DNA from: a bacterium | Lineage (GTDB): Bacteria; UBA8248; JACPRG01; G963555815 | Assembly: GCA_965218795.1 (NCBI GenBank) | Contig: OZ244653.1 | Location: forward strand, 2,848,001 to 2,912,000 | Length of the DNA stretch: 64,000 bases | Direction of reading: 5' to 3' | Part shown: piece after piece, positions 42,662-64,000 of the stretch | Layout: every line of letters starts with the position of its first letter | How positions within the stretch are numbered: the first letter of the stretch is position 1 | The notes under the pieces: generated by a model | What the model saw: the letters and a program-made list of their open reading frames with translations, nothing else | The model's database searches: none | What the model was told of the DNA's origin: nothing | Translations under genes and position numbers: made by a program

Positions 42662-43291
42662 ATGGAAGTGGTTGAGGTTTATGATGACAGGGGGTACTTT
42701 CGCATCAAGGGGATATGCCCACATTGCAAAACAACAACCACATTCCCTACACTCGAAAGACCATGCAAGGAGTCAGATGAGTATGGGAACGCCCAGTTGA
42801 TCGGGGCTTGCAGATGCGATGCCTGCTCTGATTTCATTCTCGCAATTTTGGTATGGGATCACGAGCATCGTGAGTACCGATATAAAGAACACCACCCCGT
42901 CGGTGACCCCAACGATTCCGTTTCCGAGGAAGTGCCCCCCGAAATTTCAGAAGATTTTAAGGAGGCGCTCAGGTGCATGTGGGCAAAATCGTTCAAGGCA
43001 ACCGTTCTGATGTGCAGAAGGGCGCTACAGGTGAGTTGCGACAGGGAGAGTGCGGAAGGGAGGGATCTTTTCACTCAGATTGATGATTTGGCATCCAAGC
43101 AGCATATTACAAAACCACTAAAAGACTTGGCACACGGAATACGACTCCTGGGAAAAAGGGGAGCGCACGGTGATTTCTCCGACGTGGACGACACGATAAC
43201 CAAAAAAGATGCGGAAGATGCAATCAAATTCATGGCCCACTATTTGGATCACGTTTATGTTTTGCCAAAGCGGCTAGAAGATAGTCTATAA
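42662..43291 (+). CDS. DUF4145 (HEPN-like) protein with N-terminal Zn ribbon
   Basis: CPHC...CDAC; DFKEALRC...MCRRALQ...IRLLGKRGAHG; lower GC than flanks. Confidence 0.75.
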   Translation: MEVVEVYDDRGYFRIKGICPHCKTTTTFPTLERPCKESDEYGNAQLIGACRCDACSDFILAILVWDHEHREYRYKEHHPVGDPNDSVSEEVPPEISEDFKEALRCMWAKSFKATVLMCRRALQVSCDRESAEGRDLFTQIDDLASKQHITKPLKDLAHGIRLLGKRGAHGDFSDVDDTITKKDAEDAIKFMAHYLDHVYVLPKRLEDSL

Positions 43292-47104: not shown

Positions 47105-48028
47105 ATGCACGATATCGACAACATCTCAGAGCAGAACCAGTCCGTCACCGCCACCGTCTGCGACCAGGCGGCTCTCTTCGGCGCAACTCCAGAGCGCGAT
47201 GAATTCGACAACCGGGAGGTCTGGGACCCGGAGAACGCCCTCTCCGCCGTCACGGAAGCCTTCCGCATCCTCGCACTGGGCGTCGGGCCAGACGGAATGC
47301 AACTCGCCGACGAACGCGAGAGCCTGCTCTGGGGCTTCGTCAACATGCTCGACGCGCAGACCCAACGCCTCGACCGCGCGGCCGACAGGCTCGTCCCCGA
47401 CATGCGCGACCTCCAGCGAGAGCAGGACGGCTCCGAGATTCGGTCCCGAGAGCTCGAACTCATCACCGACCGAACCAAGAACCTCACGGACCGGCGGGAC
47501 GCCTTCGAGCAACTCAGAGATGCAGCGGCCGAAGCCTACCGGGTCGAGACCGGCGATGTCTGGCGGCCCCGGCGCGGTTCCCACACCTCCCAGACCGGCA
47601 AGCTCACTTCAGCCATGATCGACGCCCGCGACTTCCAGCGTGCCCGCAAGGACCGCGAGAACAAGGCGCTCCTGCCCCAGGGAACGCTGGTCGCGGTGGC
47701 AGGCGGCAAGCAGGCCGGCGACGCCAACGCCGTCATCCGCACCCTCGAGAAGCTCAGGGCCAAGTACGACGACGTGGTCCTGGTCCACGGAGGCGGCCCC
47801 GGCGTCGAGCGCATCGCGGCCAAGTGGGCGGATCGCAACGGCGTCCACCAGATCGTCTGCAAGCCCGACTGGGACGCACACGGCAGGGCGGCTCCCTTCC
47901 GGCGCAATGACGAGCTGCTCGATCTCCTGCCCAAGGGCGTCATCGCGTTCCCGGGTTCGGGCATCACGGACAATCTGGTCGACAAGGCGCGCAAGCTCGG
48001 TATCCCGGTCCAGTGCGTTGCCGCCTGA
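47105..48028 (+). CDS. DUF2493 / YspA-SLOG domain protein (outer copy)
   Basis: Near-identical to 35962-36885. Confidence 0.8.
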   Translation: MHDIDNISEQNQSVTATVCDQAALFGATPERDEFDNREVWDPENALSAVTEAFRILALGVGPDGMQLADERESLLWGFVNMLDAQTQRLDRAADRLVPDMRDLQREQDGSEIRSRELELITDRTKNLTDRRDAFEQLRDAAAEAYRVETGDVWRPRRGSHTSQTGKLTSAMIDARDFQRARKDRENKALLPQGTLVAVAGGKQAGDANAVIRTLEKLRAKYDDVVLVHGGGPGVERIAAKWADRNGVHQIVCKPDWDAHGRAAPFRRNDELLDLLPKGVIAFPGSGITDNLVDKARKLGIPVQCVAA

Positions 48029-48773: not shown

Positions 48774-49169
48774 GTGGCCGAAAACAGTTCGATCAAACCC
48801 GAAGCCAGCGACAGCGGAGACCCGGGACATGACGGCGCGCGCAGGACCAGGGGCATCCGGTTCTCCGATTCCGAGTGGGAAGTGGTCAGGAAGGCGGCCG
48901 AAGAACGTGACGTTGCGGCCGGGAAGCTTGTCCGGGACGCGGTTTTGGATCTGGCCCGTGGCAGGACCGGCGCCGCATCCGCGTCGCTTCCGCCCGGTCA
49001 CGCCGCCCTTCTTGAGGGCGTCTACCGCGGCGTATACATCCTTTCGACCCTGAAACGTGAAGAGATGCTCCGAGAGGGCCGGGACAAAGAGCTGGACGAG
49101 GTCGTTCAGGCCGCGCGCAACGCGCAGGCGGAGGCGCTGAAGCAATCACGGCCGGGGCGGCGTGAATGA
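48774..49169 (+). CDS. Ribbon-helix-helix protein, putative relaxosome accessory factor (outer element)
   Basis: RGIRFSDSEWEVVRKAAEERDV; AAGGAG RBS; positional counterpart of 34962-35294. Confidence 0.6.
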   Translation: MAENSSIKPEASDSGDPGHDGARRTRGIRFSDSEWEVVRKAAEERDVAAGKLVRDAVLDLARGRTGAASASLPPGHAALLEGVYRGVYILSTLKREEMLREGRDKELDEVVQAARNAQAEALKQSRPGRRE

Positions 49170-52100
49170 CGGGCGGCCCCGGCGGTGATTCCACCCGGCG
49201 CGCGTGGGGAAGAGCGCCGGAACCCGTTTCCGGCCGCGAGGTTCTGGCCGGTCTTGTCGAGCGGGTGACCTTCCACAACCCGGAGAACGGGTTCTGCGTG
49301 CTGCGGATCAAGGCGCGGGGCCAGCGCGATCTCGTTACCGCGGTCGGCCATGCCGCCACGATTTCCGCCGGCGAATGGGTGACCGCCTCTGGAGAATGGG
49401 CCAACGACCGCGCCCACGGCCTGCAGTTCCGCGCCCGGCTGCTCAAGACCTCCGCTCCCTCCTCGCTGGACGGCATCGAGAAGTACCTGGGTTCGGGCAT
49501 GATCCGGGGCATCGGGCCGGTCTACGCGAAGCGCATGGTGCGGCTGTTCGGCAAGGACGTGTTCGACATCATCGAGGCCAGCCCGGAGCGCCTGCGCGAG
49601 GTCGAAGGCATCGGTCCGAAGCGGGCGGAGAGAATTACCTCGGCCTGGGCCGACCAGAAGGCGATCCGCGAGATCATGGTGTTCCTGCACCAGCACGGCG
49701 TGGGCACGGCCCGGGCCGTGCGCATCTTCAAGACCTATGGCGCGGACGCGGTCGAGGTCATGAGCGAAAATCCCTACCGTCTGGCCCGGGACATCCGGGG
49801 GATCGGCTTCCTCACCGCCGACCAGATTGCCGAAAAGCTCGGCATCGGAAAGACCGCGATGATCCGGGTGCGCGCCGGGATCTCGTTCGCCCTGTCCGAA
49901 GCCATGAGCGACGGCCATTGCGGCTTGCCCACTACGGAGCTGAAGAAGCTCTCGGAGAAGCTGCTCGAGGTTCCCGAAGAACTGGTGACAACCGCGCTGG
50001 ACATGGAGCTGTCCGAGGGGACCGTGATTGCGGACAGCGTGGGAGAGACCCCGTGCATCTTCCTGAGCGGACTGCACCATGCCGAACGGTCCGTCGGGGA
50101 GCACGTGCAAAGGATAGCCGCCGGGCCGCTTCCCTGGGCCGGGATCGACACGGACAAGGCCCTGCCCTGGGTCGAGGCCCGCACCGGGCTCACCCTCGCC
50201 GGGAGCCAGGCCGATGCGGTGCGCCTCGCTCTGCGCTCGAAGGCGACGGTCATCACGGGCGGACCCGGTGTCGGCAAGACCACCATCGTCAACGCCATCC
50301 TGCGGATCCTCCTGGCCAAGGATGTGAAACTCCTGCTGTGCGCACCCACCGGCCGTGCCGCCAAGCGCATGTCCGAAGCCACCGACATGGAGGCGAAGAC
50401 CATCCACCGGCTGCTGGAGTTCGACCCCAGGGCCTTCGGGTTCCGGCGCAACGAGGACAGTCCGCTCGACTGCGACCTCCTGGTGGTGGACGAAAGCTCG
50501 ATGGTGGATGTGATGCTCATGCAGTCGCTGGTGAAGGCAGTGCCCGGCCCTGCCGCGCTATTGCTCGTAGGCGACATCGACCAGTTGCCTTCCGTGGGTC
50601 CGGGTCAGGTGCTCTCCGACATCATCGCCTCGGGGGCCGTTCCCGTGGTGCGCCTGACCGAGGTGTTCCGTCAGGCCTCCCGGAGCCGGATCGTGACCAA
50701 TGCCCACCGGATCAACGCCGGCAGGATGCCGGAGTTGGACGAGGCCGATGGCGCGAGCGACTTCTACTTCGTGCCGGCGGATGATCCTGAGCAGGCGGTC
50801 GAGCGCGTTCTGACCCTGGTCCAGGAGCGCATTCCCCGCCGATTCGGCCTGGATCCGGTGCGCGACATCCAGGTGCTGTGCCCGATGAACCGTGGGGGTG
50901 CCGGGGCGAGGTCGCTCAATATCGAGCTGCAGGCGGTGTTGAACCCGGCCGGGGAGGAGAAGGTCGAGCGCTTCGGCTGGACCTTCGCACCGGGCGACAA
51001 GGTCATGCAGATCGAGAACGACTATGACAAGGATGTCTACAACGGCGACATCGGAAGGGTGGAAGCCGTGGATGAGGTGGAGGGCGAGGTGATTGCGGTG
51101 TTCGACGGCCGCGGGGTGTCCTATGGGTTCGGGGAGCTGGACATGCTAGTGGCCTGTACCAACTGATTTTGACCCAAGGCGTCGCCTTGGGTCATGGTAT
51201 TTCCACTTCACGGTTTTGGGAGCTTTGTTATAGAGCTTGATATAGCGCATCAGCTTTCGGTTGAGGTCTTTTACGGAGGTGAAGATGCCGCGCGAGATGA
51301 CGTGGCGTTGGATTTTGCCGAACCACAACTCGACTTGGTTGAGCCAGGACGAGTAGGTGGGCGTGAAGTGCATGTGCACGGTGGGGTGTTGGTCAAGGAA
51401 GCGCCGGACCTGCGGGGTCTTGTGGGCGGTGAGATTGTCGGCGATGACATGGATATCCTTGTCGCGGGGCTGAGTTGCCACCAAGTCCGCCAGAAAGGCA
51501 ACAAACTGCGCCGAGGTGTGGCGTTCGGCGGTCTTGCCCAGCACTTCGCCCGTCTGGGTATTGAAGGCGGCGTACAGCGACAGCGTGCCATGGCGGCGGT
51601 ACTCGAAACCATGGCGCTCGGCGCGGCCCGGGGAGAGCGGCAAAACCGGCACGGTCCGATCCAGGGCCTGGATCGCCGTCTTTTCGTCCACACAAAACAC
51701 CGCGGCATGCTGCGGTGGGTTCAAATAGAGGCCGATAATGTCCGCCGCCTTCGCCTCGAAGTCCGGGTCGCTCGACGCCATGTAGCGATCCAGCCGATGC
51801 GGCTTCAGCCCGTGCTTGGCCCACACGCGCGCAACCATCATGTGCGAGACGCCCAGCCTAGCCCCCAGGCGGCGTGTGCTCCAATGCGTCGTTCCATCGG
51901 TGGGCGGCTTGCGCGTCGCGTTCAGAATCCGCGCCTCGAGCTTTGGGGTCAGCCGCCGTGCGGCCTGACCCTGATGGCGGCTGTACAGGCCCGCAAGTCG
52001 CTGCTCCGCGAAGCGCCTGCTCCAACTGGCCACGAAACCCCGACTGCATTCGAGTCGGTCGCAGACTTGGTCCCAGGTGTATCCGTCTGCCAGCATCACA

Positions 52101-52506
52101 ATCACCCGTGCCCGGCGCGCATCTTCTGCTCGGCCGGTTCGACTTCTTGCTCGCCGCAACAGTTCGGCTCGTTCATAGGCGGTCAGTTCCATCGCGCTCC
52201 TCCTTACTGTGAGCGCAATTATTATAGTCTATAAATGGTTGTTACACTACACTAGTCCCTGCCTATGCGGCGACGGTGCACAAGAGTCAGGGTTCCGAAT
52301 ATCCCGCCGTGGTCCTGCCCGTGCTGACGCAGCATTACGCCATGCTCCAGCGCAACCTGCTCTACACCGGGATCACGCGCGGCAAGCGTCTGGTTGTGCT
52401 CGTGGGTCAGAAGAAGGCCGTGGCCATCGCGGTCAAGAACGTCTCGGGCAGGCGCCGCTGGTCGAAGCTCGATGAGTGGTTGCGGTCCGGGAACATGTCA
52501 TGTTGA
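49166..52506 (+). pseudogene. recD2: RecD2-like SF1B helicase interrupted by IS630
   Basis: GGPGVGKTT, APTGRAAKR, DESSM, GDIDQL; IS removal gives [18 protein letters not shown] in frame. Confidence 0.9.
51149..52252 (-). mobile_element. IS630-family element, transposase 51146-52192 (348 aa)
   Basis: CVDEK, ADNL..H, SWLNQVE motifs; TA duplication within CTAG at 51147-48 and 52253-54; imperfect IRs. Confidence 0.93.
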
Positions 52507-52738: not shown

Positions 52739-54870
52739 CTATGGCAAAAACTCAAATGACATTTGGATTTCGTCTTGCTCTGGCACATCGCAATGCAGTT
52801 GCGTAAGCACTAGCCAGCTTGGTTTGGGACTTGCGTGCCATCCCTCCAATTCGTCGTTTTTGTTGCACTGGCTTCGCAGCAGAATCTGAATCAGGAGCAA
52901 CACCAGTCGGATATTGGCGTGGAATTGACGAATAACTGGATCATCATCGGCAGAGTCTTCAGAAGACTCTCCCCAATCCTCCGGCTCCGGCGGCCGAATC
53001 TTACCGTGGATCACGGAATTACGAAAGCGTCGAAGATGCTCAGCTCCAATAGCAGCGATAGACCCTGCTGCGATGAGCCGGCGCATCTCTTTTGTTCTAA
53101 AGTATTCCATCTCAGTGGCACACAATTCGAATGCTCCATACACGACCTGCCGGAGATGAGGAAAGCATCGGTTTTTCATGAGGCGGAAAATCACCTCACG
53201 ACCAAGCGCACCCTTGCCGTAGTAATTTCTTCTCTCTGAGGATTGGCTTGCCATTTTGCTGGCCGCTTCGTAGGCAATCCATACCAGATGGAAGACAATA
53301 ACACCGGCAATGTGAGGTGGTCCCAGCAAATCGGACAGGTTGCTAAGGTGTATTCCACCGACTGAGGGAGGGATACGCAATGACGACACGACGGCGATTC
53401 ACGGGGGAGTTCAAGGCGAAGGTAGCGCTGGAAGCACTGCGCGGGGACAAGACGGTTCAAGAAATCGCGGTGCGGCACAAGGTGCATCCGAACCAGGTGA
53501 GCGCCTGGAAGCAGCGAGCGGTGGAGGGGCTGAAGGAGGTATTCTCCAAGGGGGCGGAGCGGGCACGTGGGGACCATGAGGTGGAGATCCGGGACCTGCA
53601 TGCGAAGATCGGGGAGTTGACGGTGGAGCGGGATTTTTTGTCCAAAGGGCTCAAGTGGTGAGCCGGGAGGGACGCAGGGCCATGATCCGTCGCGACCATC
53701 CCAAACTCAGCTTGAGCGGTCAATGCCGCCTGCTTTCCATCAGCCGATCCTCGCTGTACCACACGCCCAAGGGCGAGAGTGCGCAGAACCTGGCGTTGAT
53801 GCGGCGGATCGATGAGTTGTTCTTGAAATACCCGTTCTACGGCAGCCGCCAGATGGTCCGTCATTTGTGGCGCGAGGGAGTCCGTGTCGGTCGTCACCGG
53901 GTTCGGCGTCTGATGCGGCTGATGGGCCTACAGGCCATCTACCAAGCGCCGAGAACCACCAGACCACATCCCGAACACCGGGTTTATCCCTATCTTCTCA
54001 AGGGACTCGCCATCGAGCGGCCCAATCAGGTCTGGACCGCGGACATAACCTATATCCCCGTCCAGCGCGGCTTCCTGTACCTGGTAGCCGTCATGGACTG
54101 GGCCACCCGCCGTGTGCTCGCCTGGCGGCTGTCCAACACCCTGGATGCCCGCTTCTGCGTCGAGGCCCTGACCGAAGCCCTGGACCGCTACGGCCGGCCT
54201 CGGATCTTCAATACCGACCAAGGCAGCCAGTTCACCAGCCTCGCGTTTACCGCTGTCCTCCAAGACGCCGGCGTCGCCATCTCCATGGACGGCCGGGGCC
54301 GATGCATGGACAACATCTTCATCGAGCGCCTCTGGCGTTCGCTCAAATACGAAGCGGTGTATCTGCACGAGCTCACCGACGGCTTCGCAGCCCAAAGGGC
54401 CATTGCCAAGTGGCTCGACTTCTATAACACCGAAAGACCTCATTCCGCCCTGGCTGGCTCTACCCCGGCCGAGGCCTACGAAAAAGGACTGCCGCCGCAG
54501 ATGCAGGCCAAGCCCCACCGCTTGCCTGCCCCTCTGCCGGCTCAACCAGAACAGAAAGACGGGTCAAACAGGACGCTGGCGGCATGATCAATGAACCGAA
54601 TACACCTTCACTCAGCCGCCTAACTGTCCAAGATAGTGGGACCACCTCAATGTGCTTAGATACTACCTCACTGTTCGCCGCTTCTAATTCCAAGGCGGGA
54701 CTGCACCAGTTGGCGGTGCCATCTATGTCAGTATCAACCGAAAGATCATTTAGAGATGCAGCCACGCGGAGGTTTACTCTGACAGAGTCCAAATGATCCG
54801 ACGCCAACGATTCCGACAATTCATTGGTGATGGACAACAGCCGCTTGATATGTTCTCGCAGTGGTATCAT
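52739..54870 (-). pseudogene. HEPN-motif protein (~263 aa if restored) interrupted by IS3
   Basis: MIPLREH...SKHI joins AGVIVF...RNSVIHG in frame after IS removal; GGAGG RBS. Confidence 0.7.
53313..54649 (+). mobile_element. Apparently intact IS3-family element (orfA 53380-53661, orfB to 54587)
   Basis: IRs TGAGGTGGTCCCA...GGACAG; 3-bp target duplication ATG; WTADITY, NTDQGSQF, IERLW. Confidence 0.95.
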
Positions 54871-55527: not shown

Positions 55528-55662
55528 GTGTCGGGATTTGTGGCGCGGCATCGTGACAGCATCGCAGGCGATCTTCCTCTTCGAGCACCCGAATTGGAAG
55601 TGGTGGGAGACAAGAAAGTGGGGGGATCGCGTGGCAAATGTCCCGCAGTACAGGATGACGCC

Positions 55663-57808
55663 GTGACCGTGACGGAAAACCGTTTGCTACGGTTTCTGGA
55701 GGGTGTCCGGCCACTGTATATACTGCCGGTCGATCCGATCGCCCAAGAAGTGCTGATTCCAGGATTTAAGGCGGCGGGCAAAGTGGACTGCATGGTCGGA
55801 TTCTTCTCAAGCGAGGTGTTGGCTTCGCTTGCGCCCGGTCTGGCAACCTACATCGAAGGTTCGGAGAGCAGTTTCCGGCTGATCATAAGCCCCATTCTCC
55901 GTGCCGAGGACCAGGCCGCGATCGAGGACGGGCTGAGGTCTGCGGAAGAAGTTGCCGATAGGATTCTGGAAGATCTGACGGTTACAGAAGACCTGCTTCA
56001 ACGCCACACGTTGAAGTGCCTCTCCTGGCTCCTTCGAGAAGGTCGCATTGAGATCAAAGTCGCCTTGATGAAGGATGCGCTTTTTCACCCGAAAGTCTGG
56101 TTATTTGAAAACGATGGCGATGTCGTTGCAGCGCACGGGTCGAGCAATATGACCTATGCTGGTATCCGCAAAAACATTGAACAGATCGCGATATCGAGGT
56201 CATGGCAGGATCCGAACCAGCGCTACATCACCGACAAGCTCGGCTATGAGTTCGGTCGCTTGTGGGAGAACAAGGACGATAGCTGCATCGTCATTGCGAT
56301 GCCGGAGGCCGTCAGGCAGCGCCTGTTGTGCACCTACAGTTCTGAAACGCCGCCGACGGAAGATGACCTGAGGGCTCTGTACGGCCGCGCAACCGGGTTT
56401 GCCGAAGAGCCGGAATCTTACGAACCCGCACCTGTGCCGACGACGGGCTTTGCGATCCCAGACTGGTTGCGATACGAAGACGGTCCATTCGAACATCAGG
56501 GCAAAGCAGTAATCGCCTGGTGCGAAGCCGGGTATCGCGGCGTGCTGGAAATGGCGACCGGCTCGGGGAAAACCATCACCTCGATGATTGGCGCACACCG
56601 CCTCTACGACGGACACAAGCCGCTCCTGATCGTGGTCGCCGCCCCCTATGTGCCGCTGATCGAACAATGGTGCGATGAAATCGTCCCGTTCGGGCTGAAA
56701 CCGGTCAACCTCACCACGGCGCGTGGCGCTGCCAAACGCGCGATCGAACTGCAAAAACTGAAACGACGATTTCGCACCGGCCTGTCCGATGTCGAAGCGG
56801 TCGTGGTCAGTCACGACACCCTATGCACGCCGGAATTCCTCGACGTTATCGAGGGGTTCGATTGCGCAAGGCTGCTGATCGCGGATGAAGCGCATAATCT
56901 GGGCCGCGCGTCATTCATAGAAGACCCACCGGAGTTTTTCGAGCACCGGATCGGCCTGTCAGCCACGCCGATCCGCCAGTATGACGAGGAAGGAACGGAA
57001 GCCCTTTTCGGCTTTTTCGGTCCCGTGGTCTGCCGGTTCACGCTCGAACAAGCGATCGGGCGCTGCCTCGTCGATTACGCCTACTACCTCCACCCTCCAC
57101 CCTGTCTATCTCACCGAAAGCGAGATGGACGAATGGTTCGACCTGACGGGGAAGATCAAGCAAAACCTCTGGCGCGACAAGGGCTGCAAGCCGGACGATT
57201 ATCTCGCGAAGTTGTTGCGCAACCGGAGGGCGTTGCTGGAAACCGCATCAGACAAGGTGTCCATGTTGAGGACTCTTCTCGACGAAGAGGATACCGGCAG
57301 CCTGCGCCACACACTAGTCTACACCTCGGACAAGGGACCGGACCAGCTCGACAACGTCAACCGGCTGCTGCGTGACAGGAACATCCTGTTTCATCAGCTC
57401 ACGGCGGAAGAGACAGCCAGCCGCGACCAGACGAAGCGCATCATCAGGTCGTTCCAGGACGGCGAAATCCAGGTCCTCACGGCCAAGCGCGTGCTCGACG
57501 AAGGCGTGAACATTCCGCAAATTTGCAAGGCGTTCATCCTCGCGAGCACCACGGTCGAACGGCAATGGGTGCAGCGGCGCGGACGCCTGCTGCGAACTTG
57601 CAGAGCGATCGGCAAGACGCACAGTGTCATTCATGACCTGCTGGCCTTGCCGCCGGGAATGGAAGAAGGGCTTGATCCCGATGCGCGCGGCCTCGTGCGT
57701 TCGGAGCTGCGCCGTGCGCAGGAATTCGCGCGGCTCGCAAGAAATGCGGGCCGACCGGACGGGCCGCTGGCGATGATCGATAAAATGGTTGATGCAGCGT
57801 ACCTGTAG
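55663..57808 (+). pseudogene. PLD(HKD)-nuclease / SF2 DEAH helicase fusion, frameshifted by a 7-bp duplication
   Basis: FHPKVW...GSSN; MATGSGKT, DEAH, SAT; LDEGVNIP and QRRGR in a second frame; CCTCCAC duplicated at 57087-57100. Confidence 0.85.
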
Positions 57809-57824
57809 CGCTGGGGGAAGTGAA

Positions 57825-58070
57825 ATGCCGCTAAACGACAAAAAGATAATCTCGATCATCCTTGAGCAATGCGTCGGAATAGACGAACGGTGTGACGGCT
57901 ATAGGGAGGAGATTATCGAAGTGATTTCGGAGATTCTCGAATACGAGCGGGGCCATCGTGTTTCGGCGACGAATATCCAGAAAAAGATAAATGACAAATG
58001 CAATGCTGCCGGGCGGTTCCTTGAGGAACAACGCGGTCAGGATACGGGCACGGAGGAACTGGACTCATGA
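57825..58070 (+). CDS. Small helical protein (81 aa) coupled to the SMC-like ATPase
   Basis: ATGA overlap with 58067. Confidence 0.75.
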   Translation: MPLNDKKIISIILEQCVGIDERCDGYREEIIEVISEILEYERGHRVSATNIQKKINDKCNAAGRFLEEQRGQDTGTEELDS

Positions 58071-60208
58071 AACTGCTCCGCGCTGAATTTGAGAATTTCC
58101 GGTTGCTCCGCGATCTGGAGCTTGAGTTTGCCAACGGAGCTGACCAGAACCTGACGATCATTCGAGCGGCAAACGAGTCGGGAAAAACGACGATCCTTCA
58201 TGCGTTGCAATGGGCGCTCTACGGTGACGCCGCGTTGCCCGGCAAGGGCGAGGGTTTCCGCCTGCATCCCATCGACTGGGATGCAAGCGACGGCAAGCGG
58301 GTTCCGATTACGGCGACGGTCGAATTCGAGCTGACGACCCACCGGCAGGTCGCAGGTGAAATGCGCAAATCACGGCGGCGTTTCCGTCTGGTGCGTTCCG
58401 CATTCGAGGATGTGGACAGCCAGTCACGCCGCTCGGCCTCCACGGCAAAGCTCTTCGCGCTGAACGAGACCGGGGCTGCTCCCATCGACGCCCCGGAAGC
58501 GCTGATCAACGATGAATTGCCACCTGAACTCCGCGAAGTGTTCTTTACTGACGGCGACCGCGCCCTGAGTTTCATCGAAGCGGATGTCGCACTGTCAACC
58601 AAGCGCGAGCGCGTACAGCGGGCTATCCGTTCGCTACTTGGCCTCGGTGTGATCGACGACGCGATCAAGCATGTCCGCAAGACGGCTGCTGAGGTGAACA
58701 AGAAGGCGAAACAGATCGGCACCGACAGCGAGCTGAACAGAATCGCGTCGCGTCTGGAAGCGATCGACGAAACCTGGAACAAGTTGGAGGACGACCTCGA
58801 AGATGCGAAACAACAATTCGCGGCGTTCGAAGAGAAGGTAAACGAAACCGACCGCAAAATCGCGGCGGCGCTCCAGAAGGGCGACAAGGAGGAGCTGCGC
58901 AAAGACCTCGAAAACGCGAAGCGAGAGATCAAGCAGCTCGACGATCAGCTCACCGCCGCGAACAAAGAGCATTCAGCGTTGTTCCGCAGCCGCTCGATCG
59001 CAACCGATCTGCTCGCGCCTCTGCTCGGCCGTGCTTTCGAAAAGCTCGAAGATCTGCACGATCAGGGCAAGATTCCGAACACGACGATCCCGGTCCTGCA
59101 AGACCGGCTCTCGGCGGAACTCTGTATCTGCGGCGAGACGCTCGAACCCGGCGATCCGGACGGTGAGAAACGTCGCGAGCATATCCAGAAACTGATCGAC
59201 GACAGCCAGCGCGCCGACGAGATTCAGGAAATCATCACGGACCTCTATTACGGCGCAAAGCCGCTACAGAGCGATGGGGATGCCGGAAGCAGCGTCTGGC
59301 TGGAAGAATACAAGAAGGTCGTCCAACGCCGGGACGGTATTCAGAACCTGCGCGATGAGGCGGGCCGCAAATACCGGGCGCTCGAACTGCAACTGGATGA
59401 GCTACCGGATACGGACATACAGGGCCTGCGAGAGACGCTCCGTCAGTATAAGGATCAGCGCGACCGGTGCCTGTCCAAGCGTTCGGCCATCGAAACCCAG
59501 CTCACCGGGCTTCGACGTGAACGCGAAGAGCTTGAAACCGAACGTGACCGGCTACTGCGCGAGCAGAAAAAAGGTGCGCGGATACTGGCCGAACTGCACG
59601 TCACACAGGATGTAATGGCCGTCCTGCAGAACGCCTATGAGCGGATTACCAACGAGGAACTCGCCAAGGTCAGCGAGCTGATGAACGACATCTTCCTTGA
59701 AATGATCGGGGCTGACCCTGAACAGGGTGCAATCATCCGACGCGCCGAAATCAGCCGTGAATTCGACATTATCGTTTACGGGCCGAATGACAGGACGCTC
59801 AATCCGGACCGCGACCTGAACGGCGCGTCGCGTCGCGCCCTTACGCTTGCATTCATCCTCGCACTGACAAAGGTCAGCGAAGTCAAAGCGCCGAATGTCA
59901 TCGATACGCCGCTCGGCATGACCAGCGGCTTTGTGAAGCGGTCTATCCTGAGAACAGCGGTGCGGGAAAGCGCTCAGCTCGTTTTGTTCCTGACGCACGA
60001 TGAAATCGCCGGATGCGAAGAGATCATCGACGCAGCGGCGGGCGTGGTCTTCACGCTGACCAACCCGGCACATTACCCGAAGATGCTCGTCAACGACCCC
60101 GACGTTGTCGAACGCAAGGTTCTTCGGTGTGCATGCGATCACCGGAGCGAATGTCAACTCTGCCAGCGCCGGGTCGATGCGCTGGTCGAGCTGGAAATAG
60201 CGTCATAG
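58067..60208 (+). CDS. Rad50/DndD-like SMC ABC ATPase with CxC zinc hook
   Basis: AANESGKTT, coiled coils around CICG, LNGAS signature, VIDTPLG, LTHDE; Cys cluster at C-terminus. Confidence 0.88.
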   Translation: MKLLRAEFENFRLLRDLELEFANGADQNLTIIRAANESGKTTILHALQWALYGDAALPGKGEGFRLHPIDWDASDGKRVPITATVEFELTTHRQVAGEMRKSRRRFRLVRSAFEDVDSQSRRSASTAKLFALNETGAAPIDAPEALINDELPPELREVFFTDGDRALSFIEADVALSTKRERVQRAIRSLLGLGVIDDAIKHVRKTAAEVNKKAKQIGTDSELNRIASRLEAIDETWNKLEDDLEDAKQQFAAFEEKVNETDRKIAAALQKGDKEELRKDLENAKREIKQLDDQLTAANKEHSALFRSRSIATDLLAPLLGRAFEKLEDLHDQGKIPNTTIPVLQDRLSAELCICGETLEPGDPDGEKRREHIQKLIDDSQRADEIQEIITDLYYGAKPLQSDGDAGSSVWLEEYKKVVQRRDGIQNLRDEAGRKYRALELQLDELPDTDIQGLRETLRQYKDQRDRCLSKRSAIETQLTGLRREREELETERDRLLREQKKGARILAELHVTQDVMAVLQNAYERITNEELAKVSELMNDIFLEMIGADPEQGAIIRRAEISREFDIIVYGPNDRTLNPDRDLNGASRRALTLAFILALTKVSEVKAPNVIDTPLGMTSGFVKRSILRTAVRESAQLVLFLTHDEIAGCEEIIDAAAGVVFTLTNPAHYPKMLVNDPDVVERKVLRCACDHRSECQLCQRRVDALVELEIAS

Positions 60209-60218
60209 GAGACAACCG

Positions 60219-60680
60219 ATGGCCGACCGTTATTTCAATCCATTTCAAGCGATCGACATCAACGTGCCGGTCGAATTCCACGAGGTTTTCACCCGGTACT
60301 GCCAAAGGAGCGCCGATGCGGTCATCGACCAGAGTCCGTTTCCCCGCATGGTCGATCTCTGGTTCTTGTCCGTCTGCGTTGCGGCGCGGCTCGGGTTGGA
60401 ACCTGCTGATATTGGCAAATACGAAACGCGGAAGATCATAGACGGCTCGATCTTCGGCAGCGATCCGTGGCGTGTTCACACCCTCATGTTGATCTCGATC
60501 GGCAAGACGGGCGACGAGCAAATCGTATCGGAACCGCGAAAGATGATGGCGCTTGCCAATGGCCTCGCTGTTGCGGGACTGCCGAAAGTTATCGAAATGC
60601 TCAAGGACGGAGATGCAGAACCAATCTGGAACCTGTCGGATGCGGTTGACTCTCTCTTGAGGAAAGAGAAAGCGGCATAG
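60219..60680 (+). CDS. 153-aa hypothetical protein in a DndE-like position
   Basis: AGGAG RBS; directly follows the ATPase. Confidence 0.75.
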   Translation: MADRYFNPFQAIDINVPVEFHEVFTRYCQRSADAVIDQSPFPRMVDLWFLSVCVAARLGLEPADIGKYETRKIIDGSIFGSDPWRVHTLMLISIGKTGDEQIVSEPRKMMALANGLAVAGLPKVIEMLKDGDAEPIWNLSDAVDSLLRKEKAA

Positions 60681-60794
60681 GACAGGATGCATGACAATGT
60701 TGGTCGCGGAGTACAGACGAAGGATAGTCGAAGTCGGTAGAGATGTTGTCCCACCAATGTTCGGCAAGTCTGACAACAAACGGAGATAAGTGGC

Positions 60795-63167
60795 TTGTTC
60801 AAGATTTGCGCTCGGACGGTACTGGAACTTGGAGCTGAGCTTATCAGCTCCGATGTCATTGCGTTTTATGAGTTGATCAAAAACACGTTTGACGCAGGAT
60901 CGCCTAAAGGTGCGGAAATCTATTTCGAAGTCGTTCTAAGACGAAACGACTACCTGAAATTCCGCCAGAGGGCGATTGACAGGTCGGCGGAAATTGACCG
61001 GCTGAAGGCGGATGTCGAGAATGCGCTCGACGCGTCTGCACCGGAAGACTCCCTGGATTTCTTCCGGGCGGCGGTAGATGAGGCCGAAGACATAGAAGCG
61101 TTTGTCGAGGCTCTTGATGCGGCATACGCCGCCAAGAACCGGATCGTCGTGTCCGACGAGGGAACGGGGATGTCGAAACAGGATTTGATCGACAACTACC
61201 TCGTAATCGGTACTGCGTCGCGAAGGCGCGCGATAGATGCTGCGCTTGCAGAACATGCCGCTGGAAAACATCGCGCGCCCTATCTCGGCGAAAAGGGGAT
61301 CGGACGGCTTTCGGCCATGCGGCTGGGCGACATGCTGACGGTCGAAACGGCTGAAAAGAAGGACAAGCTCCTAAACCTGCTCAAAATTGACTGGTCGGCA
61401 TTTAGCGACCTCGATGTAATGCTTGATGAGATTGATGTCGTACCCGAGCGTGGCGGGACGAAGCCGGAGCCGGACTGGAGTGGCACACGTCTTATCATCG
61501 GCGCTCTCGGGGCCGACTGGACCTATGACCGCGTTAAATACCTTGGCGAGCATGACTTTGTGCGGTTGACCGATCCGTTCGCCGACGCCAAGCGGAGACC
61601 CCGTATCGCGGTATTCTGGAACGGTACGCGCGTTCCCGTAGCCCATATGGATCACCACCTCTTGGCGCATGCACACGCATCGGTGAAAGGACGTTTTGTT
61701 TACGGTGACTCCGGTCCGGCCCTTGAATGCAGCCTCAGAGCTTTCGACCTCGGTTTCGAGCACCCGCATGAAGTTGAGAAACGGGTGTTTGCTCTGCCCG
61801 ATCTCGAAGGGTCGATCACCGGAACATCAGGCGAAGTTCCGCTTTCAGCACTCGACGATTTGGGCGAGTTCGAATTCGAGGCGTATTGGTTTAACCGGCA
61901 ACGCCTGGGTGCCATTGACAGCATTGGAAACCGAAACCAGGTGCGGGAACTGCAACGGCGCTGGTCCGGAATCCTTCTATTCCGAGATGGATTCCGGGTG
62001 TTGCCGTACGGAGAGGACGACGACGACTGGCTGGCTCTGGACCGGCGCGCACTGGGAAGCACGGGATATCTTCTCAACAAGGCGCAATTCGTAGGTCGCG
62101 TGACGATATCGCGGCTCGGCAATCCGTTACTCATTGACCAGACAAACCGTGAAGGCTTGCATGTTTGCCCCGAACAGCAGGCATTCATTGGTTTACTTCA
62201 GCTTGCAATTCAGTATCACCTTCGGGACTTCCTAAAGGATGTCCAGCGGCGTCACAAAGACCAGCCTCTTGACATGACAGAGGCCAAGACGGACGTGTCT
62301 AACCTCGAAAAAAGGGCGAACACCGCGCTCCGGAAGATAAAACGCATTGCTCCGGAGTCGGCGGATACCGTCGAGGAATTGCAGCACACCTTCTTTGAGA
62401 TTAAGGAATTCTTTGACCGTGCACAGAACCGGATCGCCGAAGTCGAAAGCGAGAATCGCCAGATGATGCAGATGGCGGGCGTCGGGCTGCTTGTCGAGGT
62501 CGTGGCACATGAGCTGGCGCGATCGACAGAGAACGCGCTCGCGGCTCTTGAGGCCCTACGCGGCAGGGACGTCCCGGACCAGATAGGCGGGCTGCTGAAC
62601 TCACTTCGGTCCGAGATGACATCAGTAAGCAAGCGTCTTCGCGTTCTTGATCCGCTTAGCGTGTCGGGTCGTCAACGTAAGGGAACCTTCAATCTGGGCA
62701 CCCTGATCGATGACATCCTGAGCGGGCACGAGCTACAATTTGACCGTCACAATGTGAAGCTGAAGGTCACGATGCCTGAGCACGCTGTTCGTATACGTGC
62801 CGTCAAAGGCATGATTGTGCAGATAATCGAGAACCTGGTATCGAACTCCCTTTACTGGCTCGATCTCCGCAGGCAGCACGAACCCGGCTTCCAGCCGCGC
62901 ATCACGATTGCGATGGAAGACGATCCCCTGACGATTACCTACAAAGATAACGGCCGGGGAATCGCGAAGGAAAACCGCGAGAACGTCTTCCGTGCATTCT
63001 TTTCCCTGAAGGAGAAATCCAAGCGCCGGGGGCTCGGCCTATACATCGCCCGCGAGTGCGCCGAATACCACGGCGGAAGCCTAACGCTGGATGAGCATGT
63101 CAACCGCGCGACGGGACGTCTCCATCGTTTCATTCTGCAATTGCCCGATGAGGTCGTTGTCTCATGA
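60795..63167 (+). CDS. Soluble histidine kinase with N-terminal MORC/MutL-like GHKL ATPase and C-terminal HisKA-HATPase
   Basis: YELIKN.FDAG, DEGTGMS, GEKGIGRLS; H-box VAHELAR; ENLVSN, DNGRGI, GLGL. Confidence 0.88.
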   Translation: MFKICARTVLELGAELISSDVIAFYELIKNTFDAGSPKGAEIYFEVVLRRNDYLKFRQRAIDRSAEIDRLKADVENALDASAPEDSLDFFRAAVDEAEDIEAFVEALDAAYAAKNRIVVSDEGTGMSKQDLIDNYLVIGTASRRRAIDAALAEHAAGKHRAPYLGEKGIGRLSAMRLGDMLTVETAEKKDKLLNLLKIDWSAFSDLDVMLDEIDVVPERGGTKPEPDWSGTRLIIGALGADWTYDRVKYLGEHDFVRLTDPFADAKRRPRIAVFWNGTRVPVAHMDHHLLAHAHASVKGRFVYGDSGPALECSLRAFDLGFEHPHEVEKRVFALPDLEGSITGTSGEVPLSALDDLGEFEFEAYWFNRQRLGAIDSIGNRNQVRELQRRWSGILLFRDGFRVLPYGEDDDDWLALDRRALGSTGYLLNKAQFVGRVTISRLGNPLLIDQTNREGLHVCPEQQAFIGLLQLAIQYHLRDFLKDVQRRHKDQPLDMTEAKTDVSNLEKRANTALRKIKRIAPESADTVEELQHTFFEIKEFFDRAQNRIAEVESENRQMMQMAGVGLLVEVVAHELARSTENALAALEALRGRDVPDQIGGLLNSLRSEMTSVSKRLRVLDPLSVSGRQRKGTFNLGTLIDDILSGHELQFDRHNVKLKVTMPEHAVRIRAVKGMIVQIIENLVSNSLYWLDLRRQHEPGFQPRITIAMEDDPLTITYKDNGRGIAKENRENVFRAFFSLKEKSKRRGLGLYIARECAEYHGGSLTLDEHVNRATGRLHRFILQLPDEVVVS

Positions 63168-64000
63168 CGGAATTGCGGCAGCTTCTTGAAGAAAGCGGAA
63201 TCGGAAAGGCTGTCGTCATCGACGACGTGTTCGACAATGCACCGCGTCCTGACGAACTGAACGAAGGCGATTGGTCGAATTTCTTTGATGACCTTGGCGA
63301 GGCCGGAAACACGCTTCTGTCGGAACTGCACGCGGGATACGAAGACGCTTCAACGGATGACCTGAAAGCCTCACGGGAATTTGTCGAGGTTGTGTGGGAG
63401 AACCGCCACAAACTGCCCCCCGCTACAAGCGATCACCTGTTCAGCGACTACGAACACACGCAGGCCACCGAACTGAAGAGACTCGCCGCGCTCGTCGAGG
63501 CATTGGAGACGCTAGGGCTGATCTGCACGACAATGGGGCGCGACTTCGATGAAGATGCCAAAGAGGCGGATCTGATCTTTGTCGATCTGTTCCTCGGCTT
63601 TCATCAGTCTGAAAGCGACATGGAACGTGCAATCCGCCGTGTCTCGAAACTCATAGCCGACCGCACACAAAGCCCCCCGCTGGTAGTCTTGATGTCTCGG
63701 AGCACCCAGCTCTGGGAAAAGCGTAATGAATTTCGTGATGAAGCGGGTCTTCTCGGCGCGACCTTCCGGGTTGTCAGCAAGGCCGACCTTGCCAAAGACG
63801 GTAAGCTGGAGACCATGTTGACGAGGCTGGCCAAGCACTACGAGGACGCCAGGCGGGTGGCCGCGTTCGTCCACGCGTGGGACGCTGGTCTGGACCAGGC
63901 ACGAAAGGACTTCGTTCAGATTCTTCGTCGTCTTGATTTATCCGACTTAGCGCAGATACGAGCGCTGTTGCTGGATTTCGAAGGGCAAATGCTGGGCGAA
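63164..64000 (+). CDS. Receiver-domain protein with large insertion; runs off the window (absent from the ORF track)
   Basis: ATGA overlap; AVVIDD...DLIFVDLFL...LVVLMS...VVSK; open for 279 codons. Confidence 0.8.
   Translation, partial: MTELRQLLEESGIGKAVVIDDVFDNAPRPDELNEGDWSNFFDDLGEAGNTLLSELHAGYEDASTDDLKASREFVEVVWENRHKLPPATSDHLFSDYEHTQATELKRLAALVEALETLGLICTTMGRDFDEDAKEADLIFVDLFLGFHQSESDMERAIRRVSKLIADRTQSPPLVVLMSRSTQLWEKRNEFRDEAGLLGATFRVVSKADLAKDGKLETMLTRLAKHYEDARRVAAFVHAWDAGLDQARKDFVQILRRLDLSDLAQIRALLLDFEGQMLGE

Follow-up and report, generated by a model that had tools for sequence, protein, structure and literature searches.

A two-component pair with a toxin-fold receiver protein beside the Ssp phosphorothioation genes of a bacterial defense island

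A run of genes that brings together a nuclease-helicase, an ABC ATPase, and a two-component pair raises the question of whether its members form one system or several and what the signaling genes would serve. Such a run closes a 64,000-nucleotide stretch of a bacterial genome (GTDB lineage UBA8248; JACPRG01; G963555815), positions 2,848,001 to 2,912,000 of the forward strand of contig OZ244653.1 in assembly GCA_965218795.1 (G000:C1:2848001-2912000), which we call the window; the next 11 kb were read as locus L002, where position x corresponds to window position x + 55000. From 55528 to the window end, seven plus-strand open reading frames (ORFs) make up six genes. The original prediction, made from the letters alone, took these for a single defense operon encoding a DNA-scanning nuclease complex wired to a phosphorelay. 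The co-orientation and close spacing are real, the locus was correctly called a defense locus, and its domains were correctly named; 55663, given as the start of the first gene, is an in-frame GTG, while the ORF itself opens at 55528. Both of the ATGA overlaps that had been noted are present, CTCATGAAA at 58067-58070 between the pbeB-like gene and pbeC and CTCATGACG at 63164-63167 between the kinase and receiver genes, and the remaining gaps are 10 nt and 114 nt, the latter separating the pbeD-like gene from the kinase gene. The six genes nevertheless fall into two units rather than one operon, namely, pbeABCD and a kinase-receiver pair, and together with sspA and sspBCD beyond the window end they give an island of three modules. 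Our preferred reading, held with moderate confidence on the strength of sequences and structural models, is a three-module phosphorothioate (PT) island in which the pair may be a dedicated Ssp accessory, a modification-linked sensor kinase that would control a toxin-fold effector. The pair would then be a separate, Ssp-dependent-looking module rather than an arm of the nuclease complex.

Reading past position 64000, as the original prediction had advised, uncovered a full predicted PT modification module, SspABCD, just beyond the window end. sspD (L002 10415..11254; PADLOC, 3.9e-138) begins about 1.4 kb past base 64000 and lies on the minus strand, as do sspC (L002 11251..14640; PADLOC, E = 0) and sspB (L002 14640..15596; PADLOC, 1.3e-107; DUF4007, 2.3e-87); sspA (L002 15753..16955; PADLOC, 1.6e-124; Aminotran_5, 9.8e-77) is divergent from sspDCB. 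All four genes are single frames without stops. The remark that no dndA or dndC is visible holds only inside the window. Published work is cited here by PMC number, and the statements credited to it refer to the parts of each paper that were available. Like the SspABCD systems that carry SspE or SspFGH, this module consists of a cysteine desulfurase, the DUF4007 protein SspB, the ATPase SspC, and the PAPS-reductase-like SspD, and here too an extra module occupies the partner position; the difference is that the partners here are Pbe and the kinase-receiver pair (PMC8092258). SspE had no match anywhere in the genome. The sole match to SspH, at 0.31 Mb, is an FtsK-like C-terminal part that arises equally in 8 of 14 reference genomes, and its identity as SspH was rejected. 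Within the window's phylum, SspD was found in this genome alone out of 51; in one class sample, which includes the chosen center, 7 of 400 genomes (~2%) have it. A second PT-type locus lies 1.5 Mb off (G000:C1:4440724-4444315; L132:9644-13315). Its DndC-like gene, the only one in the genome, is in two pieces and contains an internal TAA; a DndB-like gene comes next, and the neighborhood gave no match to DndD or DndE.

The kinase gene (60795..63167, plus strand) encodes a soluble histidine kinase of 790 amino acids (aa) with an N-terminal Hsp90/MORC-type GHKL module, a middle region, a DHp domain bearing H572, and a C-terminal HATPase_c domain. Pfam detects HATPase_c_3 (5.9e-15) and HATPase_c (2.8e-20), and a profile of 18 kinase homologues, searched against the PDB, aligned residues 517-784 with kinase cores (LvrB, 5e-18) and residues 65-204 with Hsp90-family N-domains (~1e-6). 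E26, N30, D33, D121, G123, G125, H572, and E573, as well as N680, N684, D718, G720, G722, G746, and G748 in the second ATPase module, are invariant in 18/18 sequences; these residues make up the H-box and the Bergerat motifs of the two ATPase modules, and the N, G1, and G2 boxes are present. There is no transmembrane segment, as no 19-residue window reaches a Kyte-Doolittle value of 1.6, so that Pfam and hydropathy bear out the earlier description of a kinase without membrane anchorage in which a GHKL domain (HATPase_c_3) is fused to a DHp-HATPase core.

The receiver gene starts within the window, which holds the first 279 of its codons (63164..64000, plus strand), and continues to 65065 (L002 8164..10065), giving a protein of 633 aa that matches no Pfam family. 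An AlphaFold model built with 27 homologues (predicted local distance difference test [pLDDT], 86) has four parts: a receiver fold at residues 12-225, a helical linker, a MazF/Kid/CcdB fold at residues 349-475, and a last domain at residues ~485-626. The receiver fold (Z, 11-12) carries a helical insert, and its pocket of D20, D21, D141, S178, and K206 is invariant in 27/27 sequences. Judged by the H-box, the N/G1/G2 boxes, and the acidic pocket with Ser/Thr and Lys, kinase and receiver can be regarded as two-component proteins. The two differ in pace. The kinase is under strong constraint (nonsynonymous divergence [dN], 0.07-0.13; dN/dS, 0.02-0.10, a rough figure since synonymous divergence [dS] is near saturation), while the receiver protein changes at roughly three times that rate (dN, 0.20-0.40, against the same kinase range; L003, L004, L009, L010, and L015; dS near saturation), its last domain showing the most change in the alignment.

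Residues 340-633 were also modeled alone (pLDDT, 82) and searched against 48,161 chains. The MazF-like domain, an SH3-like barrel plus a C-terminal helix, matched 12 toxin chains at Z scores of 9.3-6.8, followed by an unrelated chain at 4.6; the top chains were 8zws (Z, 9.3; 99 aligned residues; root mean square deviation, 3.1) and 1vub (Z, 8.9), and Foldseek gave a probability of 1.00 with TM scores of 0.55-0.63. Its invariant set consists of D355, C379, D380, R383, W428, R456, Q466, R475, and G477. The domain at ~485-626, searched jointly with the MazF-like domain, reached a best Z of 3.5 and is without a match. Unlike MazF, Kid, and CcdB, the domain here follows a receiver domain in the same polypeptide and is not accompanied by a separate gene for an antitoxin. 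A search with the C-terminal half of the receiver protein among 1.84 billion representatives returned 855 clusters (50% identity) at an E value of ≤1e-3, and nearly all complete proteins among the 150 matches listed are 620-690 aa long with the match at ~340-640. One protein of 1,049 aa, P0379, is a natural chimera: residues 1-760 share 41% identity with SspC of this genome, and residues 709-1019 share 30% with the receiver linker and MazF-like domain. It could have arisen by deletion or be a genuine fusion of SspC and receiver parts.

We asked with which neighbors the pair keeps company in other genomes, scanning contigs of one genome per species. A scan anchored on the kinase gave 29 loci from 98 pattern hits, and one anchored on the receiver alignment gave 69 loci from 122 pattern hits; 23 kinase-anchored loci on contigs shared with the receiver scan were dropped, and the 69 receiver-anchored and 6 remaining kinase-anchored loci make up 75 genomes. 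Both genes of the pair occur in 73 of these, side by side in 72. At least one of sspB, sspC, and sspD lies within 10 kb in 62 genomes, 2 of which hold just a 63-aa fragment, leaving 60 with real genes; sspB, sspC, and sspD are all present in 46. A further 7 genomes have sspA, sspE, or sspFGH alone in reach, and among the 6 without any Ssp gene, 4 have partial genes or the kinase alone and 2 end at a contig edge. The original prediction expected the kinase pair to be conserved beside the ATPase, yet PbeC is near the pair in just 18 of the 75 genomes, with the order pbeA-B-C-D-kinase-receiver in 17. Given Ssp genes beside the pair in 60 genomes and Pbe in 18, the pair tracks Ssp and not the ATPase. 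Ssp modification genes occur with no Pbe, SspE, or SspFGH in reach in 31 pair genomes. Of the 58 loci that have sspD as well as the kinase gene, 19 have sspD directly upstream of the kinase on the same strand with a gap of 13-429 nt (and sspC upstream as well in 18), 22 have sspD convergent after the receiver gene, as in this window, and in L030 the pair is placed between sspC and sspD. The pair nearly always accompanies Ssp; most Ssp systems are without the pair.

Two other large proteins recur at these loci. One has ~810 aa, carries an HATPase_c_3 domain at its N terminus, and is repeatedly found next to Ssp genes (L021:14436-16877, L017:2180-4606, and, on the plus strand, L110 from 16244); it also adjoins sspA in an Ssp locus without the kinase pair and has no PADLOC family match. 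The other, of ~975 aa with HNH, STAND NTPase, and TPR parts, is encoded immediately after the receiver gene in 7 of the 75 genomes (for example, L013:14417-17356, L026:14501-17428, and L025:14416-16723) and is absent from this window.

The first four genes of the run are, by homology and gene order, predicted to be pbeABCD, an already named and experimentally studied PT-dependent antiviral module with the alias CxC ABC ATPase-DndE system. The CxC system was reportedly first described by Krishnan et al. in 2020. The statement in the original prediction that no functional characterization of the layout was known does not stand for these genes, since they match PbeABCD through the PADLOC profiles of PbeA and PbeC. 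In the published module, PbeA is an HKD-SF2 (superfamily 2) helicase, PbeB is small and evolves rapidly, PbeC is a CxC ABC ATPase, and PbeD is a DndE cognate (PMC10853773); PbeB has 66 aa and PbeD, in H. jeotgali, 152 aa, and Pbe gives a haloarchaeon PT-dependent protection against a virus, of which no more than a weak remainder is left when pbeA is deleted (Xiong et al. 2019, PMC6459918). The same four-gene order of HKD-SF2 helicase, small protein, CxC-hook ABC ATPase, and ~152-aa protein is found here, but the published partner is DndCDEA, whereas the neighbor here is SspABCD and pbeA is frameshifted (PMC6459918, PMC10853773). A description of Pbe paired with Ssp was not found in the literature searched, including the available parts of PMC6459918 and PMC10853773.

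The frameshift had been recognized in the original prediction and proved to be a 7-nt insertion relative to 6/6 intact homologues. pbeA is one gene in two frames, represented by plus-strand ORFs at 55528..57375 and 56981..57808. The 5′ part, with a PLD/HKD nuclease domain and the SF2 helicase N-lobe, matches PbeA (PADLOC, 1.4e-118) over residues 69-522, as well as TIGR04095 dnd_restrict_1 (7.7e-54), ResIII (8.2e-13), DEAD (3e-11), and PLDc_2 (25.8 bits, slightly below the 27-bit cutoff), and an HPKVWLFE...GSSN motif is readable in its translation; the native frame is lost after ~57094. The 3′ part, the helicase C-lobe, is native from ~57092 and matches PbeA (PADLOC, 8e-66) with residues 38-256 against profile positions 453-665 of 672, along with Helicase_C (1.6e-09), so that the two halves abut at profile position ~453-455. 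A tandem duplication at 57087..57103 (CCTCCAC twice at 57087-57100, then CCT) shifts the gene to the +1 frame. Contigs of three runs from one study span the site with 0 gaps and 0 differences; these runs are possibly the source sample, and their agreement excludes only a slip of one assembly. Since pbeA is unbroken and stop-free in the 17 other Pbe-bearing loci (the L027 copy spans 65% of the length), we predict that pbeA was knocked out in this genome by the 7-bp duplication.

The other three genes of the module are in frame. The pbeB-like gene (57789..58070, plus strand) encodes 93 aa from a TTG start and has no family match in Pfam, PADLOC, or NCBIfam; it was assigned by position and size, which fit PbeB, and tblastn places it between pbeA and pbeC in 12 loci. 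pbeC (58067..60208, plus strand) encodes a 713-aa CxC-hook ABC ATPase of the DndD sister clade (PADLOC PbeC, 2.1e-52, and DndD, 5.6e-32; Pfam AAA_23, 4.6e-16), with a dN/dS of 0.07-0.14 at a dS close to saturation. The unusual ATPase motifs and the C-terminal Cys cluster pointed out in the original prediction are indeed there, but they are not degenerate in the sense of decay: AANESGKT, the CIC hook (353-355), LNGAS (584-588), and CxCxHx3Cx2C (688-699) are invariant in 10/10 aligned homologues and are therefore family traits. The pbeD-like gene (60219..60680, plus strand) encodes 153 aa, fits PbeD in position and size, and is 59-93% identical across 10 homologues; with no match in Pfam, PADLOC, NCBIfam, or PDB sequences and a chance E value of 1.7 in a PDB profile search, it gives no demonstration of DndE homology in this analysis. 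A homology of PbeD to SspB, suggested by overlapping matches in L005 and L006, was rejected, with an hhalign probability of 0.2% between the two proteins. What those two Rhodothermales genomes hold (L005:7477-7929 and L006:1173-1574) is a 63-aa sspB 5′ piece that abuts the pbeD 3′ half just upstream of the kinase gene; this is what is left of a deleted island, from which the pair has been retained in whole or in part.

The nearest published relatives of the pair are HEF_HK (PF19191) and Response_reg_2 (PF19192), defined by Bellieny-Rabelo et al. in 2021 as a soluble two-component-like pair with 91.6% linkage and enrichment near restriction-modification (R-M) genes, C5 methylases above all (PMC8011034). 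The available part of that paper reports no functional experiments on the pair, and PT, Dnd, and Ssp have 0 occurrences in its main text. Our kinase reaches 20.3 bits against HEF_HK, below the cutoff of 24.1, and one close homologue has a precomputed PF19191 match. PF19192 was matched by 0 of 27 members of the receiver family (E ≤ 1), by nothing in this genome (E ≤ 10), and by none of 5 other pair-holding genomes or 30 distant relatives, and we rejected membership in that family. True PF19192 genes were found in 6 of 301 genomes of one order. At all six loci, a C5 DNA methylase is followed by a ~990-aa kinase (HATPase_c_3, HEF_HK, and HATPase_c) and then by the Response_reg_2 protein; none has Ssp genes, and the methylase-kinase-receiver cassette is a conserved core without a separate restriction gene or other conserved partner. 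hhalign links the two receiver families over the receiver core at 94.6% (E, 7e-8) and over the final helix of the MazF-like domain at 95.8% (E, 7.6e-9), and PxCDxxR and R[IV]G are kept in the C-terminal part of both; PF19192 proteins stop after the last MazF-like helix and so do without the extra domain present here. The pair thus appears, from profile comparisons, to be a remote homologue of the HEF_HK/Response_reg_2 pairs. Shared with them are a soluble kinase of HATPase_c_3, DHp, and HATPase_c, an adjacent receiver with a canonical Asp pocket, and a DNA modification neighbor (PMC8011034); different are the length of the kinase (790 against ~990 aa), the extra C-terminal domain of ~150 aa on the receiver protein, the failure of both proteins to reach the Pfam thresholds, and the partner, which is Ssp and not a C5 methylase.

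Our literature searches returned, on HEF_HK/Response_reg_2, the Bellieny-Rabelo work and two incidental mentions, with no experimental follow-up. No paper linking the pair to Ssp was found, in searches where SspBCD with "histidine kinase" met one review whose contents lay outside their coverage, and the available parts of two recent PT and BREX surveys have no mention of such a pair. An Ssp-linked pair with a toxin-fold receiver protein was not found described, while the Pbe part is already known. In a protein cluster search, the top clusters were nameless, and a cluster with 18% PF19192 members stood at rank 30 with a score of 0.79, which we regard as a lead only.

The surroundings of the three modules have the look of a mobile element. 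GC content is 0.54-0.60 across the island and 0.66-0.70 in its flanks. The upstream edge carries an insertion sequence (IS) transposase of the IS630-like DDE_3 type (51146..52192, minus strand) and an IS3-type integrase (53655..54587, plus strand), both found with Pfam. Right of sspA are a nucleoside 2-deoxyribosyltransferase gene (L002:17060-17608, or 72060-72608 in window numbering; 3.3e-27) and a TraI/RecD-like helicase gene (L002:17985-19925, or 72985-74925; AAA_30, 2.4e-49), which together suggest an integrated conjugative element. Beyond the IS elements on the upstream side, genes for a DUF4145 protein (42662-43291), a YAcAr/SLOG-domain protein (47105-48028), and a RecD2-type helicase (49166-51166) may belong to the same mobile or defense region. 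With the same middling assurance as the reading to which this belongs, we take the whole to be a mobile PT-based defense island of ~16.5 kb, the left half of which is held by the window. Its nine genes other than pbeA are each one frame with no stops. Promoter-like sites in the island number 7, against 5.9 ± 2.2 in shuffled sequences, and terminator-like sites 17, against 18.9 ± 5.2, neither of which is a signal. Single-gene breaks are found in other copies of the island, namely, a stop in pbeC of L007 (7288-9426), frameshifts in the receiver gene of L019 (12361-13917) and L047, and an insertion in the kinase gene of L020, and decay of single genes seems common among them.

How might the three modules work together? 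In the reading that we prefer, SspA and SspBCD would put PT marks on the cell's own DNA. The kinase would have its Hsp90/MORC-type GHKL head in place of a membrane sensor and could use it to read the state of the DNA, the modification machinery, or an infection cue; it would autophosphorylate at H572 and pass the phosphate to D141 of the receiver. Phosphorylation of D141 would then switch the MazF/CcdB-fold domain and the extra C-terminal domain of the receiver protein, and either the invader or the infected cell would be arrested. We infer the signal, the direction of control, the target of the effector, and protection itself. In this way, the pair would occupy the place that SspE or SspFGH, for example, takes as a restriction or effector partner. 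Since pairs of this kind accompany a modification enzyme in two families, and the methylase cassettes are without other conserved partner, the simplest reading is that the pair would be the non-modifying arm of an R-M-like unit, a view in which our confidence is neither more nor less than in the scheme of which it is a part. It is possible, and we suggest it tentatively, that a His-Asp phosphorelay decides between self and nonself in modification-linked immunity, with the same pair joined to two marks of unrelated chemistry, 5-methylcytosine in the methylase cassettes and backbone PT in the sspBCD-kinase-receiver operons; the GHKL head would read the mark on the DNA or the machinery, and phosphotransfer would release the MazF-fold effector.

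Several observations pull against this reading of the pair as a restriction-like arm. The loci share ancestry and were found via conserved peptide patterns, and their counts are therefore not independent trials. Among 7 Ssp loci of the class sample not chosen for the pair, none has it, which makes the pair a minority option among Ssp systems. The MazF-like domain has no match to the toxin sequence families (PemK/CcdB, Pfam), the catalytic Arg and Thr of MazF could not be placed in the receiver protein, and a shared MazF/CcdB fold does not by itself establish the function. Other defense genes lie beside the pair in the 75 genomes (SspE in 4, SspFGH in 14, HNH-STAND in 7, and the 810-aa GHKL protein in 7), and part of the linkage between the pair and Ssp could come from clustering in defense islands. 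There is no RNA run among the public runs carrying the locus. These genomic data would also suit a pair that acts only as a regulator.

Such a role is an alternative that we think unlikely. The pair would tune the activity or expression of SspBCD, for example, by keeping modification partial, and the MazF fold would serve as a nucleic acid- or protein-binding output. The equally tight linkage to sspBCD, with 19 operon-like layouts, agrees with this, as does the lack of recognizable MazF catalytic residues; for Dnd, regulators of the DndB type, reportedly described, would offer a precedent. Family scans, however, detected no DNA-binding output domain in the receiver protein, the methylase-kinase-receiver core without a separate restriction gene is a better fit to an effector, and the solved structures with a MazF-like fold among the matches are toxins. 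That toxin fold, together with the joining of the pair to modification enzymes in two families and the mobility of an island flanked by IS elements and a TraI-like helicase, also suits an addiction module, which would sense loss of the mark, kill cells that lose the island, and so stabilize the mobile element rather than act against phages. We consider this somewhat more doubtful than a regulatory role. The genomic evidence cannot tell it from our preferred reading; SspFGH, toxic when unrestrained, is still protective against phages (PMC8092258).

Two further explanations we judge improbable. The six genes might after all be one operon, with the phosphorelay regulating, or driven by, the Pbe nuclease-ATPase complex, which is the least supported of the alternatives; co-orientation, the short step of 114 nt from pbeD to the kinase gene, and the six-gene order in 17 of the 75 genomes speak for it, whereas 57 pair genomes are without PbeC in reach and 60 have real Ssp modification genes. 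No kinase appears in the available parts of the papers on Pbe/CxC systems, and "histidine kinase," "receiver," and "MORC" have 0 occurrences in the main text of PMC10853773. At least as improbable is that the pair is an independent defense system merely clustering with Ssp in defense islands. Several unrelated defense genes do occur at pair loci, but the Ssp linkage in 60 of 75 genomes far exceeds the SspD base rate of ~2%, and neither the 19 same-strand sspD-kinase junctions, with gaps of 13-429 nt, nor the pair between sspC and sspD in L030 would be expected of casual neighbors.

Returning to the reading of the pair as an Ssp accessory, its position is what gives it immediate interest: lying exactly where the partner of an Ssp module lies, the pair is a concrete, clonable candidate for a PT-dependent effector, and the locus provides a first functional context for pairs of the HEF_HK/Response_reg_2 type. 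The occurrence of Pbe with Ssp widens the known mixing of PT modification and restriction modules. If the kinase reads the modification state, two-component signaling would be linked to epigenetic self-recognition. Should the phosphorelay indeed decide between self and nonself, it would represent a new restriction arm that acts by signaling and not as a DNA-tracking nuclease, and, as 83.9% of sspBCD clusters are without a known partner (PMC8092258), the pair could be the missing partner for part of these ~84%.

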